Source of the DNA: an uncultured Chloroflexia bacterium | GTDB lineage: Bacteria > Chloroflexota > Limnocylindria > Limnocylindrales > CSP1-4 | Assembly (NCBI GenBank): GCA_963781705.1 | Contig: CAWAGP010000001.1 | Coordinates: 135,406 to 199,405 of the forward strand | Direction: 5' to 3' | Length of the DNA stretch: 64,000 bases | In this document: one piece after another, positions 8,959-62,436 of the stretch | Position numbering within the stretch: position 1 is the first letter of the stretch | Layout: each line of letters opens with the position of its first letter | Made by a program: the position numbers and the translations under genes | Notes under the pieces: generated by a model | What the model saw: the letters and a program-made list of their open reading frames with translations, nothing else | Told to the model about the DNA's origin: nothing | Database searches by the model: none

Positions 8959-9033
8959 TGGCGAGTGGCCAAACGGTAAGGCACCTGACTCTGGATCAGG
9001 CAATTGAAGGTTCAATTCCTTCCTCGCCAGCCA
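8959..9033 (+). tRNA. tRNA-Gln, anticodon CUG
   Basis: Folded manually: acceptor TGGCGAG/CTCGCCA, discriminator G, encoded CCA. The 3-bp D-stem GCC/GGC is as in E. coli tRNA-Gln. The anticodon stem is CCTGA/TCAGG and the loop is CTCTGGA (U33, C34-U35-G36). The T arm is GAAGG-TTCAATT-CCTTC. Confidence 0.9.
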
Positions 9034-11216: not shown

Positions 11217-11291
11217 TGGCGCGTGGCTCAACGGTAGAGCACCTGACTCTGGATCAGGGGGTTGAAGGTTCGAATCCTTCCGCGCCAGCCA
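11217..11291 (+). tRNA. tRNA-Gln, anticodon CUG (second, diverged copy)
   Basis: Acceptor TGGCGCG/CGCGCCA, discriminator G, CCA. D-stem GCT/AGC. The anticodon arm is identical to copy 1 (CCTGA-CTCTGGA-TCAGG). T arm GAAGG-TTCGAAT-CCTTC. The compensatory differences from copy 1 show the two are not a recent duplication. Confidence 0.9.
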
Positions 11292-50921: not shown

Positions 50922-51578
50922 ATGGATGGCGCGCTGATCGAGCGGGCTCGGGCGGGCGACGCCGCGGCCCTCGATCAGATCGCGCGCGAAGCGATCGACT
51001 CGGTCTACCGCACGGCGGTCGGCATTCTGGGCAGCCCGGCCGAGGCGCGCGACGCGACACACGACGCGCTGATCTCCGCCCGCCGCTCGCTGCGGTCACT
51101 GGGCGAGGTCGGCCGCTTCGACACCTGGCTGCAGCGCATCACCGTCTACGCTGCGAAATCGGTCGCGCGCAACCGCCGGGGAGTTCGTGAGATCGCCGTC
51201 GCGCCGGCCGAACAGTCCGCCGGCTCCGGCCCCCCGAATGCGATCAGCGCGACCGACTTCGATCGGGCCTTCGAGCAGCTGACCATCGACCAGCGCGCCC
51301 AGCTGCTCGATTACGACCTTGGCGGAGGATCGGCTGCTGAGTCGGGCCCGCAATCCGCCCGCAGGGCGTTCGACCAGCGGCTGCGCCAGCTCGTAACGAC
51401 GAACAGGCTCGACGACGCCGAACTCGAGCGTCACCTCGCCCGACGCACCACGGCCACCATGACGCCCAACCAGCGTGAGGCGCTGCTCGTCGCGATCAGC
51501 GCCAACCGGGGTCGCGGCTGGCGTCGAACCGTCAGGCTGGCGGCGTCTGGCTCGCGCCCGTTGTGGCGGCAGTCGTGA
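50922..51578 (+). CDS. ECF sigma factor (copy 1), read in frame into an anti-sigma N-terminal segment
   Basis: ATG with SD GGAGGA. Sigma regions 2 and 4 are present. There is no stop where copy 2 has its ATGA sigma/anti-sigma junction. Confidence 0.65.
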   Translation: MDGALIERARAGDAAALDQIAREAIDSVYRTAVGILGSPAEARDATHDALISARRSLRSLGEVGRFDTWLQRITVYAAKSVARNRRGVREIAVAPAEQSAGSGPPNAISATDFDRAFEQLTIDQRAQLLDYDLGGGSAAESGPQSARRAFDQRLRQLVTTNRLDDAELERHLARRTTATMTPNQREALLVAISANRGRGWRRTVRLAASGSRPLWRQS

Positions 51579-52895
51579 TCGCCGTGGCGGTCGCGCCGAC
51601 GCTGCTGGGTGGACAGCAACCGTCCGCGTCGCCGGCCAACCTCGCCACCGGGTCGGCCATACCCGCCGGCCAGGAAGTGGCGACAAATGCGCCCGGTCCG
51701 TCAACAAGCGCCGGGTCGATCGTGACCTCGAGCACGGCGGCTCAGCCGGACGTCTACTCGGCGCAGCAGTTGGCGGCCATGATCGGCGACGCTGCCTGGG
51801 TCGGCCACTACGTCATCGCCCGGGCGCAACTCGCCTACATGCGGGCTCCACCGGTGGGACCGAATTGCTCGCCGCCGTACCCGTGCTACGTCGCAGTACT
51901 GGCCGGCGTCTCCGGCAACAACCTGCGTCACCGTTGGCTGGCGCGACGCGCCGGTCGGCCAGGGCATCCAGATCGTCGACCACGGCGAGCGCTGGGTGCA
52001 GCAACTGACCGTTCCCGCGGAACCCGGCCAGTACGCCTTCAAGGTCGCGACCGATTCAGTTGAGTACCTGGGCCCGGCACGCCTCGCCGCCGGCAGTGCG
52101 TGGGCCGTCCCGGATGCGCTGTCGTACACGCCCCAGCTCCCGAGCGACGACGTGTACGCGGTGAGTGGCTGGCTGGTCGGCACGTCACCCGCTCCGTGCG
52201 CCGGTCCGGCCGTGCCGCCGGAGGCGAACACCGACTACTGGTGCGGCGGCTCATGGCTGACCCAGGACGCCGAATCCACCGTGACCGCCACCGGCTCGCC
52301 CATCCTGCGCCAGCTCGACGGCCTGCCCTGCAGTGGGAGGCGTATCCCGACTTCGCAGCGAATCCGGTCACCAACGGGCCGGGCGGAGCGGAACCCAGGC
52401 AGGCCACCTACCTTGTCCGCCCGGCCGGCTGCCCGACGTTCGTGATGGCGCGAGTGCCCGGTGTGGCGAATGGTCGGCCGGCTCGACCAGTACGTGGTGC
52501 CCTCCCCGGCCGACGCGTACCCCGCCCAATTGGGCGGCGAACCGGTGCTGACGCCCGATCAGGCTCGCTCGCAGGCGATGACCAGCGCTTCGGCGACACC
52601 GTTCCTGGTCGGCGGTTGGGCGTCGTATGCAGTGCCCGAACTCTGCCCGCCTGATCCCGGCTTTCCCGACACGCCACTGCTCCAGAAGTGCGACGACGGT
52701 TACCGGCTCTACGGCTCGGCGGCAACCAGCGCGGACGACCCCGGCGTACCGCTGGCAGCGTCGGACATCGTCATCCCGTTGGCGCGCCCCATCGTGCTGC
52801 GCGTCCACAGCCACGATCCTGGCGCCACCGGGTGCCCAGCCGATTACGACGCCGCGTGCAGCGCGGCCATCGTGGTCGACGCCGTCGCCTGGTGA
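51563..52895 (+). pseudogene. Anti-sigma TM plus large extracytoplasmic repeat protein (copy 1), split across four reading frames
   Basis: The homologous segments appear in successive frames (starts 51563, about 51920, about 52325, 52461). Each aligns to the intact copy-2 protein (VEYLGP..., YWCGG, YLVRPAGC, WRMVGRLD, and a C-terminal Cys-containing domain). Confidence 0.55.
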
Positions 52896-52994
52896 CGCTC
52901 CCCAAGGACGAGAATCGGGACCGCCATCGGGGCGAATGAACCAAACCGTTCCACCGCGCATCTTGATTCATGGGAAGCGGAGATCGGAGGGTGA

Positions 52995-53508
52995 ATGGAC
53001 GGCGAGCTCGTCGAGCGTGCTCGGGCGGGTGATGCCGACGCCTTCGATCAGCTGGCCCGCGCGAGGATCGATGCGGTGTACCGGACGGCGATCGGCATCC
53101 TGGGCAACAGCGCCGACGCGCGCGACGCGACACAGGAAGCGCTCGTCTCCGCCTGGCGCTCGCTGCACTCGCTGCGCGACGTCGAGCACTTCGACGCGTG
53201 GCTGCATCGGATAACCGTCAACGCCGCGAGGATGGTCGCCCGCCGCCGGCGCGTGCGCGAAATCCCGATGACCGCCGACCTCGAGCAGGCCGACCTCGAC
53301 CCGGGTGCCGTCAGCTCCGGCCGACTTCGACGCCGCCTTCGACCGACTGTCCGTCGACCAGCGCGCCCTGCTCCTCGCCCACCACCTTGACGGAGAGTCG
53401 GTGGCCGACCTGGCCGTCCGACTCGGCATCCCCGAAGGCACGGTCAAGTCCCGGCTGCACACCGCCCGCCAGGCATTGGATAGAGCGCTGCCCGAGGGCG
53501 AGCGATGA
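52995..53508 (+). pseudogene. ECF sigma factor (copy 2), apparent single frameshift near 53301-53320
   Basis: Regions 2/3 are in frame A (52995-about 53304). Region 4 is in frame B (53305-53508, ...DFDAAFDRLSVDQRALLL...). By comparison with copy 1 it would be one continuous protein. Confidence 0.6.
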
Positions 53509-55717
53509 GCCCGATCTCCGACCAGGAGCTCCAGCGCCACCTCACCCGCCGGACGACGAAGACCATGCCTGCCGCCGATCGCGAGGATGTCCTCGCCGCC
53601 GTCGCCGGCGCGCGTGCTCGGCCGCGCTTCTCGTTCCGCATACGCCCGAGCCTCCTGCTGGCACCGATCGCCGCGCTCGTGCTGGTCGTCCTCGTCGCCG
53701 TGCCGCTGCTCTGGACGCTTGCCCCCGGGCCCGGCCCGTCGCCATCGCCGTCTGCGATCACGATCTACTCCGCGCAGGAGCTCGTCGAGCCTCGCCCGCG
53801 AACCCGGCTTCAGCGGCACCGTCATCGCCCGCGTCACTCTGGATCCACCGTTCCCCCTCCCGAGCGAGCCGGAGCCTTGCCCGGCACCAGAGGTATGTGA
53901 CTCGCAGCAGTCGATCGGACAATACTCAACGGAAATCTGGACCGGTTGGCGGGATGCGCCGGAAGGCGAAGGAACACAGCTGCCCGTCGGGGCAGTGGGT
54001 TACCCGTGTCCTCGCCGCCCTCCTTCCGGCAGGCGCGCTCGGCGCATACCGCGTGAGTGGTGGTCGCGTCGAGTACCTAGGCCCGGCATACCTGTCGCCG
54101 AGCGGCTCATCGATGACGGTCGAGGCGGCAAAGTCATCAGCGCCCTCGGATCCGGTAGACGACGTGTACGTCGTCTCCGGCTGGCTTGGCGAGGCGGTGC
54201 CCAGCGGATGCCCCCCTCCCGCCGTCGGGTCTTGCGACGGTTCGTTCCTGACAAGGGACAGGGAGTTCCCGCTCACAACGGAGGGCAACAACACCACCGC
54301 CAACTATCCAGTCGGTCCCGCGTTGCGTCTTCAGTCCGGCGCGTACAGTGACTTCGCCGCCTCGACCGGCAGCGACGAGCACGGCGCCATCCCAAGCTAC
54401 GGCACCTATCTCGTTCGGCCCGCCGGCTGTTCCACTCGCGTCACCGGCAGCGACGCCTGTCGCTGGACAATGGTCGGCCGGCTCGACGAGGCCCCGGCCA
54501 GCCCGACGCCATCGCCATCGCCCTTGCCGACGGCATCCGTCTCGCCATTGGATGTGCTGACGCAGGACCAGTTGATCGCGATGGCGACCGACCCGGCAGC
54601 GGCTGGTCGGCTCGTTGTCGCGGAGGCGCAGCTGGCGCCGGTGCCCGTCCCGAGCGCGAGCCAGCCGTGCGATCCACCCGACCCGTGCTATGCCGGGCAG
54701 ATCGGAGTGAACCCGGGCGTCGTCGTCTACTCGGGCTGGCGCGATTCGACCACCGTCGGTGCCGGCACCTACTACCGGCCGGAGCAGCGGTGGCTTGTCC
54801 GTCTCGAGCCACCACCAGTTTCCGAGCCACAGCTGATGGCGTTCCGGATCGGACGGGGCACGGTCGAGTATCTCGGCGACGCGCAGGAGGTCGATGGCTC
54901 GTTCGTCTGGTCGGTCGACGATCTCGCGGCGCAGGACAGTCCGCTGCCGGACGAGGTCTACGCAGTCGACGGTTGGCTCGTGCAGTCGATCATCGCCGAG
55001 TGCCCAGCACCGAACGGCTACTCGTCGACCAGCGATATGAATTACTGGTGCGGCGGTACGTTCCTTACGCAGCAAGAGACCCAACCGCCGCAGACGCATG
55101 GCGTGTTCGATCTCGGGGGCATCCACGTGCAATGGGGCGCTTACCGGGAGTTCGCACCCGACCCAACCTCCAACAGCGGCCAAGGAACCTCACCCAGACA
55201 CGGCATCTACCTGGTCCGCGTGGTTGGCGAGCGGAACACGAACAGCGGCCAGTCGCAGGTATGGCGCCTCGTCGGCCGGCTCGATCCGCCGATGGCTGCG
55301 CCAGCCCCGAACCCGACGCCGTCGCCCACACCCTCCGAGCCCTCGGAGATCGCCGGCCAGCCGGTTCTCTCTACCGACGAGGCACAGCAGCAGATCCACG
55401 CCGGCTACGCTGGCGGCCTGCTGATTGCCGGCCAGGTCGCCTTCACACAGGCCGATTGCTTCCCGCCGGCCGACTTCCCGAATACGCCACTGCTCGCAGC
55501 CTGCGGCGACGGCTACCACCTACTCGGCATCAATGGCAGCCAGACCACGATTCGGCTGGCGATCATCAACTTCTCGGGTGAGCTGCCCACCGGAGCATCT
55601 GTCGTCGTGAGCGTGCATACACACGATCCCCTGGCTGCTCAATGCCCGGAGAAGTACACCGAGGCCTGCCAGCAGGCGGTAGTGCTGGACGATGTGGCGT
55701 GGTCGCAATCGACTTGA
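53505..55717 (+). CDS. Anti-sigma factor (copy 2) with a 600-aa extracytoplasmic domain built from an internally duplicated D1-R unit plus a C-terminal Cys-containing domain; two apparent frameshifts in its first 500 nt
   Basis: ATGA overlap with the sigma gene. Cytoplasmic ELQRHLTRRTT. TM helix LLLAPIAALVLVVLVAVPLLW. The frame changes near about 53780 and about 54000, then is continuous to 55717. Confidence 0.55.
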
Positions 55718-57372: not shown

Positions 57373-58435
57373 TCAGGGCTGGATTACCGGCGCGTTGGCC
57401 TTGTCGGACAGCCACTCCTGGGTGATCTGGGCCAGCGTCCCGTCAAAGTGCATCGCCGAGAGGGTCTGGTTGATGCAGCTCGTGAGCGGGCTGCCCTGCT
57501 GCAGGACCAGGCTGAAGTACTCCTGCCCGTCGCCGGCGGCCGGGAACTGGCCGACGATGACGCCGTTGTCCATCTGCGCGGCGGTGATGTAGAAGGCCGT
57601 CGGCAGGTCGACCACGATGCCGTCGATCTGATCGGCGTTGAGGGCCGAGATGGCGGCGTCATTGGTGTCGTAGACGCTCGGTGCGCTCGTCGGCTGGATG
57701 ACGTCCGTGATGTACGTGTAGCTCGTCGTCCCGACCTGGGCGCCCAGCCGATAGCCCTGCAGTTCGGCCATGGTCGTCGCGCTGGTGATCGGCGTGCCCG
57801 CGTTGGCCACGAGAGCCTGGTTGACGACGTAGTAACCGTTGCTCATGTCGACCTTCGTCGCACGCTTGGCGGTGTACGAGATCTGGTTGATGTCGAAGTC
57901 GAACTGCTTGTCGCCGGGTGCGTACGAGCTGCTGAAGGGCACGTACATCCAGGCAACCTGGTCGGCGGTGAAGCCCAGCTCGGTCGCCACCTGGTACGCC
58001 ACCGCGCTCTCGAAGCCGCGCCCGTTGGTGGGATCGCCCAGCGACCACGGCTGGCTGCCGTTGATCGGCGTGCTGGCGGTCTCGCTGTCAGTCGGCGGAT
58101 CGAAGTAGGGCGGGTAGGCGGGATCGTCCGTGCCGATGGTCAGCTGACCGGCCGTCTTGACCGGCAGGCCGGCAATGGGTCCGCAGATGCCACCAACCGG
58201 TGTCGGCTCGACCGTCGGCGTCGCCGTCGGCCCAACGGTGGGCACTTCGGTGGGCGTGGCCTCGGCTGTCATCGATGGCGCCGGAGTAGGTGTCGGCGCG
58301 ACTGTCGCGTGCCGGCGTCGGCGCGACGGTCGGTGAAACCGAAGCGAGCGGGGACTCGGTCGCGGCAGGCGTGCTCGAACACGCGGCCAACACCAGGCTC
58401 ACGACCAACAGCGAAAACGCCCTGTGGACCTTCAT
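57373..58435 (-). pseudogene. Amino-acid ABC substrate-binding lipoprotein, apparent frameshift within the Pro/Thr linker (about 58283-58340)
   Basis: The signal peptide plus lipobox (MKVHRAFSLLVVSLVLAACSS; SD GGGAGGAG) is in one frame. The mature SBP domain is in another. The junction has two 25-nt-spaced near-copies of GTCGCGCCGAC. Confidence 0.55.
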
Positions 58436-58520
58436 GCCCGCTCCTCCCTGGCCGATCGGCACGGCCAACTTGAGCGGCGAGAATAGCAACTCTGCGGAGA
58501 TTCGAGCCGGCAGGCGGAGG

Positions 58521-60229: not shown

Positions 60230-60602
60230 TTCGACGCGCCCGGCGCTTGGCCAGCGCGAGCTTGTCGCGCATCACGTAACCGCCCGGCTTCTTGAAACTG
60301 CGGTCAAGTGGCGGCTGGAGCAGGTCGGGGTCGGACAGGTCGATGATCTGGGTGCGCGGCACGACCCACAGCCGGACGCTCTCCTGGCGGCGGCTGTAGA
60401 ACTCGCGCGCGTAGTGCATGGCCAGTTCGCGGTCGGGCGCGCGCAGGTTGCCGGCGTGGCGCATCGGGTCGCCGTCCTTCTCCTGGCGGAAGACCTCCCA
60501 GACGTCGGGTCGGCGCCGTCGCCCAGTCGGCCGGACTCGTCGCGCCGCCCTTCCGACGGACGCTGCGGCTCGCCGGTCACGCGGCCGCCCCGATCGAGGC
60601 AC
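60138..60602 (-). CDS. paaB: Phenylacetate-CoA oxygenase subunit PaaB-like
   Basis: Core WEVF...HAGNLRAPD...LWVVP resembles PaaB. Both ends are uncertain. Confidence 0.5.
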   Translation of the reverse strand: MPRSGRPRDRRAAASVGRAARRVRPTGRRRRPDVWEVFRQEKDGDPMRHAGNLRAPDRELAMHYAREFYSRRQESVRLWVVPRTQIIDLSDPDLLQPPLDRSFKKPGGYVMRDKLALAKRRARRSERRGSAADAPVDPARRTHLRPPDARSEHA

Positions 60603-61824: not shown

Positions 61825-61837
61825 TGGCTTGTCCTCG

Positions 61838-62436
61838 TCAACTGCCTGGTGGGGCCGCGTGGCTGCTGAGGCCGCGCAGGAAAAGGTCGGCATGCTGGTC
61901 GGCGATCTGGGTGGGCGTCAGCGCACCGTCGGTGCCGGTACCACGTGGCCACTCCGTTCAACGCGGACAGGATGGTGGTGGCGGTCAGGCGCGGGATCGA
62001 CCGCCGCGAAATCGCCGCTGCGGATGCCCTCGCTGATCGCGTTCCGGAAGAGCGCCTGGTGGGCGTCGCGACGAGCGGCGATCTGGTCACGCCTGCCGTC
62101 GGACAGGAACCGCCACTCGCGCAGGAAGACAGCGGCGTCGCGCTGGCTGCTGGTGACGACCGCCAGGTGGGCGCGGATCATCGCGCGCAGCTTGGCCTGC
62201 GCCGGCAGCGAACTTGAGGCAACCGGTCCGACTTCCGCGTCGAACCGCTCGGCCGCGCGGATCACGATCGCCCACAGCATGTCCTCCTTGGAGGCCACGT
62301 GGGCATACAGGCTGCCGCCCTGCAGGTTGAGCGCCTGGGCGATGTCGCGCACGCTGGTGGCGGCGTAGCCACGCTCACGGAACAGCGCGGAGGCGGCGTC
62401 CTCGATCTGCTGGCGGCGCGACACCTCGGTAACCAC
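61838..62436 (-). pseudogene. TetR-family regulator (PaaR-like position), apparently carrying two +1 frameshifts
   Basis: HTH N-terminus VTEVSRRQQIEDAASALFRERGYAATSVRDIAQAL (frame 1). The mid section RLTATTILSALNGVATWY is in frame 2. The C-terminus GTGTDGALTPTQIADQHADLFLRGL is in frame 3. The total span is 599 nt, i.e. 3n+2. Confidence 0.55.

Follow-up and report, generated by a model that had tools for sequence, protein, structure and literature searches.

We analysed a 64,000-nucleotide stretch of DNA from an uncultured Chloroflexia bacterium (the window; ~68-70% G+C) and found that it holds two tandem gene pairs, each consisting of an extracytoplasmic function (ECF) sigma factor gene and, directly downstream, a gene for a membrane protein with a modular ectodomain. 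This ectodomain is built from three domains, named D1, R and, at the C-terminus, Cterm, which, as judged from sequence, are a previously undescribed domain family without described relatives. As a whole, the locus is best explained, with somewhat better than even confidence, as a coupled ECF sigma/membrane anti-sigma system with a modular ectodomain, the frame breaks in the window being mostly assembly errors. The two pairs, copy 1 and copy 2 (anti-sigma candidates as1 and as2, respectively), have genes for VanY-like and Oxidored_molyb proteins (48.4-50.6 kb) on one side and those for an amino-acid ABC transporter (55.7-58.4 kb) on the other.

The initial annotation had overlooked that both copies are frame-disrupted. 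Three-frame translation, together with tblastn searches with intact homologues, showed that neither protein is encoded by a single open reading frame (ORF): copy 2 is spread over three frames and copy 1 over five segments. In copy 2 the N-terminal and transmembrane (TM) part is read in mod0 (53505-53789), the first D1 (D1a) in mod1 (53791-53991), and the remainder in mod2 up to the stop codon (53993-55717); the first ~265 codons of the 839-aa ORF at 53198-55717 are out of frame and meaningless. When the frames were stitched, copy 2 read as N-terminus, TM helix, D1, R, D1, R and Cterm, and copy 1 as N-terminus, TM helix, D1, R and Cterm. The public gene calls P0001, P0133 and P0164 are fragments of the window copies, a fragmentation that is probably caused by assembly indels.

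The repeats within and between the two copies are beyond chance by far. A family hidden Markov model (HMM) aligned over the full length of every D1+R unit, giving 231 and 349 bits for the two modules of copy 2 and 296 bits for the single module of copy 1. Furthermore, BLASTP aligned the first R of copy 2 with the second module at E=7e-20 and the Cterm domains of the two copies with each other at E=5e-25. Thus, the layout proposed in the initial annotation, TM-(D1-R)-(D1-R)-Cterm for copy 2 and one D1-R-Cterm set for copy 1, held up, and all of its motifs were present (IARxxL, C..P.PC, GWRD, VEYLG, DxVYxVxGWL, CPxP, YWCGG, GAYxxFA, YLVR, WRxVGRLD, HxHDP and VV.D.VAW). Several of its details had to be revised, as R measures ~135 aa instead of ~160 aa, the VEYLG strand that had been taken to open R closes D1 in the AlphaFold model, and Cterm, which had been listed as separate from R, is homologous to R in its first half. 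The D1+R module spans ~245 aa, with ~110 aa in D1 and ~135 aa in R and a conserved Cys pair in each, and successive modules are joined by Pro/Ser/Thr linkers. In the module alignment (21-23 sequences) Cys 39, 150 and 166 are invariant and Cys 45 nearly so; also nearly invariant are GWL, Q..AY, YL.R and, among the polar and aromatic residues of R, W141, Q193, Y197, Y219, R222 and R242. The idea that D1 and R are themselves diverged copies of one domain was rejected, since nothing was detected by hhalign (probability 0.6%).

The Cterm domain (~117 aa) carries four conserved Cys and caps only some family members. Its invariant residues in the corresponding alignment (A5) are C53, H91, D94, C100, C108 and W119, and its first half resembled the first half of R in hmmsearch comparisons with many R domains (E 1e-9 to 1e-3). 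Other C-terminal extensions were seen elsewhere in the family: an ~80-aa conserved tail (FC..PTQATI.A.E..YGL...C) follows the last domain in P0004 (745-820), P0005 (497-587) and P0009 (594-681) and is absent from the window copies, while other members have tails of 300-570 aa, two of them with BNR-like sequence motifs (P0055, P0156).

The initial annotation did not recognise the ectodomain as any described sensor domain and had proposed HMM searches and structure prediction as a check. No match to the 562-aa ectodomain was found in Pfam or NCBIfam even at E<=1, and Pfam-A, NCBIfam and the sequences of the PDB were all without a match; likewise, Pfam gave no match to nine long family members, and profile searches against all PDB sequences returned only noise. 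AlphaFold2 nevertheless produced confident models from shallow alignments, with a pLDDT of 88.9 and a pTM of 0.86 for the module and a pLDDT of 95.3 for Cterm, and Foldseek found no significant neighbour of either model in the PDB. The weak neighbours of both models were almost all oligonucleotide/oligosaccharide-binding (OB) folds: Cdc13, LysRS, Rpb7, MCM and SSB for the module (E>=0.36), and RPA14, Ten1, Stn1, OB domains of aminoacyl-tRNA synthetases (aaRS) and the bacterial OB lipoprotein 3f1z for Cterm (E 0.03-0.5, probability up to 0.93, TM-scores 0.42-0.52). The predicted folds may therefore most resemble OB-type beta-barrels, a weak likeness that stays below significance. What they would share with RPA14, Ten1, Stn1, the aaRS anticodon-binding domains and 3f1z is a five-strand barrel with terminal helices (TM-scores 0.42-0.52), at a sequence identity of only 8-14% and E 0.03-0.5; unlike these proteins, the window domains are predicted to be extracellular and disulfide-bonded, and each module has an additional, separate D1.

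The family extends well beyond the window. Among metagenomic protein clusters, a word-indexed search yielded 12 proteins, and an exhaustive search with the D1+R profile yielded 498 clusters at E<=1e-3, of which 342 also passed E<=1e-10 and 133 passed E<=1e-30, with 1-5 matched stretches per cluster. Local domain parsing gave the architectures R-R, D1-R, (D1-R)x2, (D1-R)x3 and (D1-R)x4, each with or without Cterm. Only two relatives come from named organisms, an uncultured Chloroflexia metagenome-assembled genome (MAG) and an uncultured Anaerolineaceae MAG, both of them uncultured Chloroflexota.

The initial annotation had also suggested looking for homologues beside ECF sigma genes, and in every readable context a sigma gene was found immediately upstream: in both window copies and at the loci L001, L002, L003-L005, L007, L008, L009, L010 and L011. 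The window shares its gene order with three of these loci (L001, L002 and L008); the others (L007, L009, L010, L011 and L003-L005) lie in different neighbourhoods. Moreover, the sigma and membrane protein genes overlap by the same 4-nt stop/start, ATGA, in the window and in L001, L002, L007, L008, L009, L010 and L011. Two further observations concern the upstream sigma genes themselves. At L003:7453-7998, and also in L004 and L005, the sigma gene preceding the P0012 homologue has an in-frame stop that separates region 2 from region 4; P0012 itself occurs on 12 contigs from several samples, and all three loci that were read contain a 115-aa, region-2-only sigma call. This stop is therefore unlikely to be an assembly error, and it could represent a split sigma factor, a readthrough site or a fixed pseudogene. 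At L009:2492-3020 the gene call splits the sigma gene that precedes P0016 into two overlapping ORFs, with region 2 in the one and region 4 in the other; this is a further frameshift, and here too the contig name is of the long-read style.

After frame correction, sigma copy 2 matched Sigma70_r2 (1.7e-12) and Sigma70_r4_2 (4.5e-14) in Pfam and scored 77.6 bits on TIGR02937, where the cut-off is 42.9. It has sigma 2 and sigma 4 regions only, as do ECF (group IV) sigma factors; neither sigma copy has an intact frame in the window. Upstream of sigma copy 2 lies the element GAACC-N15-GCATCT, which is kept in position and sequence 30-60 nt upstream of the sigma orthologues in L001, L002, L007 and L008, and is the sole exact match in the window, where 0.07 would be expected by chance. 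This element fits a putative autoregulated ECF promoter. Besides the operon's own, no other regulon promoter was found in the window, looser matching giving hits at chance level.

Several features of the membrane protein point to an anti-sigma function. In as2, an Arg-rich stretch precedes the hydrophobic TM helix, and the N-terminal/TM segment is 78-83% identical to those of P0004 and P0009, as compared with only 36-48% for the ectodomains of the orthologues. Among 154 family sequences, 110 have a TM helix at residues ~45-55 following a conserved 'L(S/T)D.EL...L.RR' or 'DD.ERRLR' segment; the rest are mostly fragment-like, a few having a signal-peptide-like N-terminus instead. The protein thus has the generic architecture of a membrane anti-sigma factor, being encoded adjacent to and in the same orientation as the sigma gene and predicted to be single-pass with the N-terminus inside. 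In addition, the N-termini of 33 members gave recurrent weak matches to NCBIfam models, with 12 of the 33 matching NF052375 ('anti-sigma factor') and 11 matching NF038083 (best E 0.002-0.005), and as2 itself matched NF038083 at E=2e-5. We therefore consider it likely that the membrane protein is the anti-sigma factor of its adjacent ECF sigma.

Some results weigh against this assignment. No anti-sigma family model was matched at threshold: the scores were 16-25 bits against cut-offs of 100, that of as2 for NF038083 being 24.6 bits against 100, and the weak N-terminal matches extend over the TM helix and may reflect composition. A match of the ASD, zf-HC2 or RskA type was found neither for the window protein nor for the 33 N-termini at E<=0.1 in Pfam and NCBIfam, and a cytoplasmic part of ~45 residues is small by the standard of class I anti-sigma domains. 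That D1-R binds a ligand is, in turn, pure inference. The proposal of the initial annotation that these proteins contain a new module for sensing by ECF sigma systems thus stands in so far as the ectodomain is undescribed and strictly linked to sigma genes; the N-terminus remains below anti-sigma thresholds, and the sensing itself would follow from inference only. The lack of a recognised anti-sigma domain would also be expected if the membrane protein were instead a sigma-dependent surface protein, such as an adhesin or an envelope-spanning structural repeat, that is merely co-transcribed. Its 1-5 tandem, disulfide-bonded, beta-rich modules with Pro/Ser/Thr linkers do resemble surface repeat proteins, and in some members variable distal domains follow the modules, with BNR-like motifs in two of the tails. 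However, we regard this as unlikely, given that the gene invariably follows sigma directly, its start codon overlapping the sigma stop, even in distant members and in unrelated neighbourhoods, and given also the N-in topology, the conservation of the cytoplasmic segment while the ectodomains diverge, and the recurrent weak matches to anti-sigma models.

If the protein is an anti-sigma factor, D1-R could still be a passive stalk of adjustable length, with a variable C-terminal domain as the true sensor. Syntenic orthologues with ~90% identical sigma factors have anything from 2 to 4 modules, and the C-terminal additions vary between members (the four-Cys domain, the ~80-aa tail and the tails of 300-570 aa), as a stalk would allow. 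However, many members, P0002, P0003, P0006 and P0012 among them, end directly after the last R, and therefore the modules must suffice for function in these proteins; furthermore, the near-invariant polar and aromatic residues of R exceed the needs of a spacer, and the C-terminal domain itself derives from R. The stalk alternative thus appears rather improbable. In the anti-sigma model that we prefer, the membrane protein gene is translationally coupled to the ECF sigma gene and yields a single-pass protein whose N-terminal ~45 residues would hold sigma at the membrane. The disulfide-stabilised ectodomain would bind an extracellular ligand or report the state of the envelope, signal-dependent removal of the anti-sigma factor would free sigma, and the freed sigma would then transcribe its own operon from GAACC-N15-GCATCT.

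The frame breaks in the window bear on whether these genes are still functional. The DNA of sigma copy 2 is 93% identical to that of four orthologues, with one extra base at 53315 as its sole lesion, and an alignment of window positions 52976-54522 with the intact L007:1628-3171 (92.5% identity over 1547 nt) contained exactly three gaps, corresponding to the extra bases 53315, 53786 and 53986 of the window; apart from the last two, the DNA of D1a is 99% identical to the intact L007 gene. After removal of the extra bases, the ratio of nonsynonymous to synonymous divergence (dN/dS) was 0.21 for sigma (versus L007) and 0.25 for D1a-R1, as compared with 0.16-0.34 between intact sigma genes. Because of these low values, 0.21-0.25, the frame of copy 2 must have been under purifying selection for essentially all of its divergence. 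Breaks are also present in genes unrelated to the system: tblastn with syntenic proteins located them in the SBP, PaaB and TetR genes further downstream (Table 1). In total, 11.6 kb (50.9-62.5 kb) contain at least 11 frame breaks, including seven in the 4.8 kb of the sigma/anti-sigma locus, and no frame break was detected at window positions 1-50.9 kb. A codon-model Viterbi scan had limited the breaks to the sigma/anti-sigma locus, which was overturned by those in the SBP, PaaB and TetR genes. Likewise, low G+C at third codon positions (GC3) was discarded as a sign of decay, as intact orthologous anti-sigma genes share a GC3 of 0.77-0.80.

Since unrelated conserved genes are also broken and dN/dS is 0.21-0.25, assembly error is likelier than decay for copy 2, and a regional consensus-quality problem of the assembly probably explains its breaks. 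Against this stand the confinement of the breaks to ~12 kb, which could mean real local decay, and the presence of intact orthologues on similar long-read-style contigs (L001, L002 and L007), so that the gene is not systematically broken; an assembly origin would be provable only with reads. Were both sigma/anti-sigma pairs and several neighbours real pseudogenes, in a lineage that is losing the system, the breaks would be biological. The seven breaks in 4.8 kb would suit such a loss, as would the intact orthologues on contigs with similar long-read-style names and the lesions of copy 1 that go beyond single-base error (sigma region 4.2 gone in every frame; stop, start and -35 lost); moreover, the first 50 kb of the window are clean, and therefore the assembly is not poor overall. 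For copy 2, however, there is no nonsense codon or other lesion besides the three 1-nt insertions, the promoter and ribosome-binding site are intact, dN/dS is the same as among the intact orthologues, and single-base indels are also found, within these 12 kb, in unrelated genes of high conservation, for example PaaB (92-94% identity at the amino acid level). Decay of the whole region is thus possible, and we hold it to be doubtful. The indels at 53315, 53786, 53986 and 60505 all lie 0-3 nt from a CGTC, a post hoc observation on a motif that the window contains, as CGTC/GACG, about once in every 50 nt; this proximity could hint at a motif-linked basecalling error.

Copy 1 is in a different condition and is probably a real relic. 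It has at least four frame changes, region 4.2 of its sigma factor is absent in all three frames, and the promoter element upstream of it is degenerate, with the -35 element lost. Furthermore, sigma copy 1 has no stop codon and continues in the same frame into the motif of the anti-sigma N-terminus (LDDAELERHLARR; window 50922-51578). The public gene call P0164 (218 aa) corresponds to this sigma/anti-sigma fusion ORF, which has no counterpart in any homologue.

Table 1. Features of the sigma/anti-sigma locus and frame-broken downstream genes (window coordinates)
Feature	Coordinates	Strand	Remarks
ECF-type promoter candidate GAACC-N15-GCATCT	52938..52963	+	upstream of sigma copy 2
ECF sigma factor copy 2	52995..53508	+	1-nt insertion ~53315; Pfam and TIGR02937
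Anti-sigma candidate copy 2, cytoplasmic N-terminal segment (~47 aa) and TM helix	53505..53714	+	ATG overlaps sigma stop (ATGA)
D1a, copy 2 first D1	53763..54094	+	spans two 1-nt insertions (53786, 53986); family HMM 1-242 over stitched residues 87-327
R1, copy 2 first R	54095..54499	+	BLASTP vs module 2; R HMM domain
D1b, copy 2 second D1	54554..54889	+	first sequence of alignments A1-A3; AlphaFold module model residues 1-112
R2, copy 2 second R	54890..55297	+	model and alignment shared with D1b
C-terminal four-Cys domain, copy 2 (~117 aa)	55355..55717 (incl. stop codon)	+	alignment A5, AlphaFold
Sigma copy 1, region 2 to 4.1 only	50922..51407	+	sigma HMM positions 1-138 of 170; Pfam Sigma70_r2 only
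Anti-sigma candidate copy 1	51408..52895	+	five frame segments; tblastn and three-frame reading
D1, copy 1	51752-52085	+	within 51408..52895
R, copy 1	52086-52499	+	within 51408..52895
Cterm, copy 1	52536-52892	+	within 51408..52895
SBP gene	57379-58440	minus	break ~58310; signal peptide in other frame than mature part
PaaB gene	60246-60580	minus	1-nt deletion ~60505; protein otherwise 92-94% identical (aa) to orthologues
TetR gene	61832-62436	minus	two breaks, ~61994 and ~61930

Rfam and tRNA scans found nothing within the sigma/anti-sigma locus. Elsewhere in the window, the plus strand carries two tRNA-Gln(CTG) genes (8959-9033 and 11217-11291), separated by 2.2 kb.

Single-pass membrane anti-sigma factors of ECF sigmas include RseA, RsiW and RskA, which belong to class I, and CnrY, a short class II factor. 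The window protein resembles them in that its gene is directly downstream of, and translationally coupled to, an ECF sigma gene, in its cytoplasmic N-terminus, one TM helix and extracytoplasmic C-terminal region, and in an operon promoter that is of the ECF type and apparently autoregulated. It differs in that it matches none of the ASD, zf-HC2 and RskA models, the length of its cytoplasmic part (~45 residues) is nearer to class II than to class I, and its ectodomain family is unrelated to any that has been described. The likeness to NF038083 (the CU044_5270 family) and NF052375, weak and recurrent, concerns the N-terminal helix/TM region: the matches span only profile positions ~5-70 or 49-99, the ectodomain is without a match, and with 24.6 bits and 16-20 bits the proteins fall short of the >=100 bits for NF038083 membership. 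The anti-sigma-I factor RsgI of Clostridium thermocellum is similarly modular, with swappable binding modules as its extracellular parts (PMC6582324). According to this 2019 paper, no OB-fold protein was found among anti-sigma factors before the cytoplasmic N-domain of RsgI, which is the only anti-sigma factor with a reported OB-like beta-barrel (PMC6582324); in our literature search, an OB-like sensor on the extracellular side of an anti-sigma factor was not found described. However, the OB-like domain of RsgI is its cytoplasmic, sigma-binding N-terminus, whereas those of the window protein are predicted to be extracellular. The sensors of RsgI are carbohydrate-binding (CBM) or PA14 modules, unlike D1-R, and its partner is SigI, whereas the window protein is paired with an ECF sigma and has no RsgI_N match. 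The system would thus work like a classical ECF sigma/membrane anti-sigma pair, the new part being the putative sensor ectodomain.

The sigma/anti-sigma cassette also differs from its surroundings in divergence. Its synonymous divergence (dS) amounts to 0.16-0.20, roughly half the 0.40 found for the Oxidored_molyb gene beside it, and in L007, from the uncultured Chloroflexia MAG, the flanking genes are 71-83% identical to those of the window, as compared with 92.5%, and locally 99%, for sigma copy 2 and the 5' segment of as2. The high identity of the cassette is a weak hint of lateral exchange or gene conversion between lineages. More speculatively, and with little confidence on our part, D1-R might be an extracellular, disulfide-locked, OB-like ligand-binding module in a rapidly reshuffled sensory array; passing the cassette from one lineage to another would then serve to follow a variable external ligand, which could be a glycan, an envelope polymer or a phage.

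Among the main routes by which bacteria signal across their membranes are ECF sigma/anti-sigma pairs, and to our knowledge most ECF sensor domains and their signals are unknown. The window's own copies may not be expressed as written. The family nevertheless defines three uncharacterised domains with confident predicted structures, conserved Cys and predicted disulfides, a strict link to ECF sigma genes and a spread over ~500 clusters, and D1, R and Cterm thereby lend themselves to structure determination, to ligand screening and to an entry as a new domain family.

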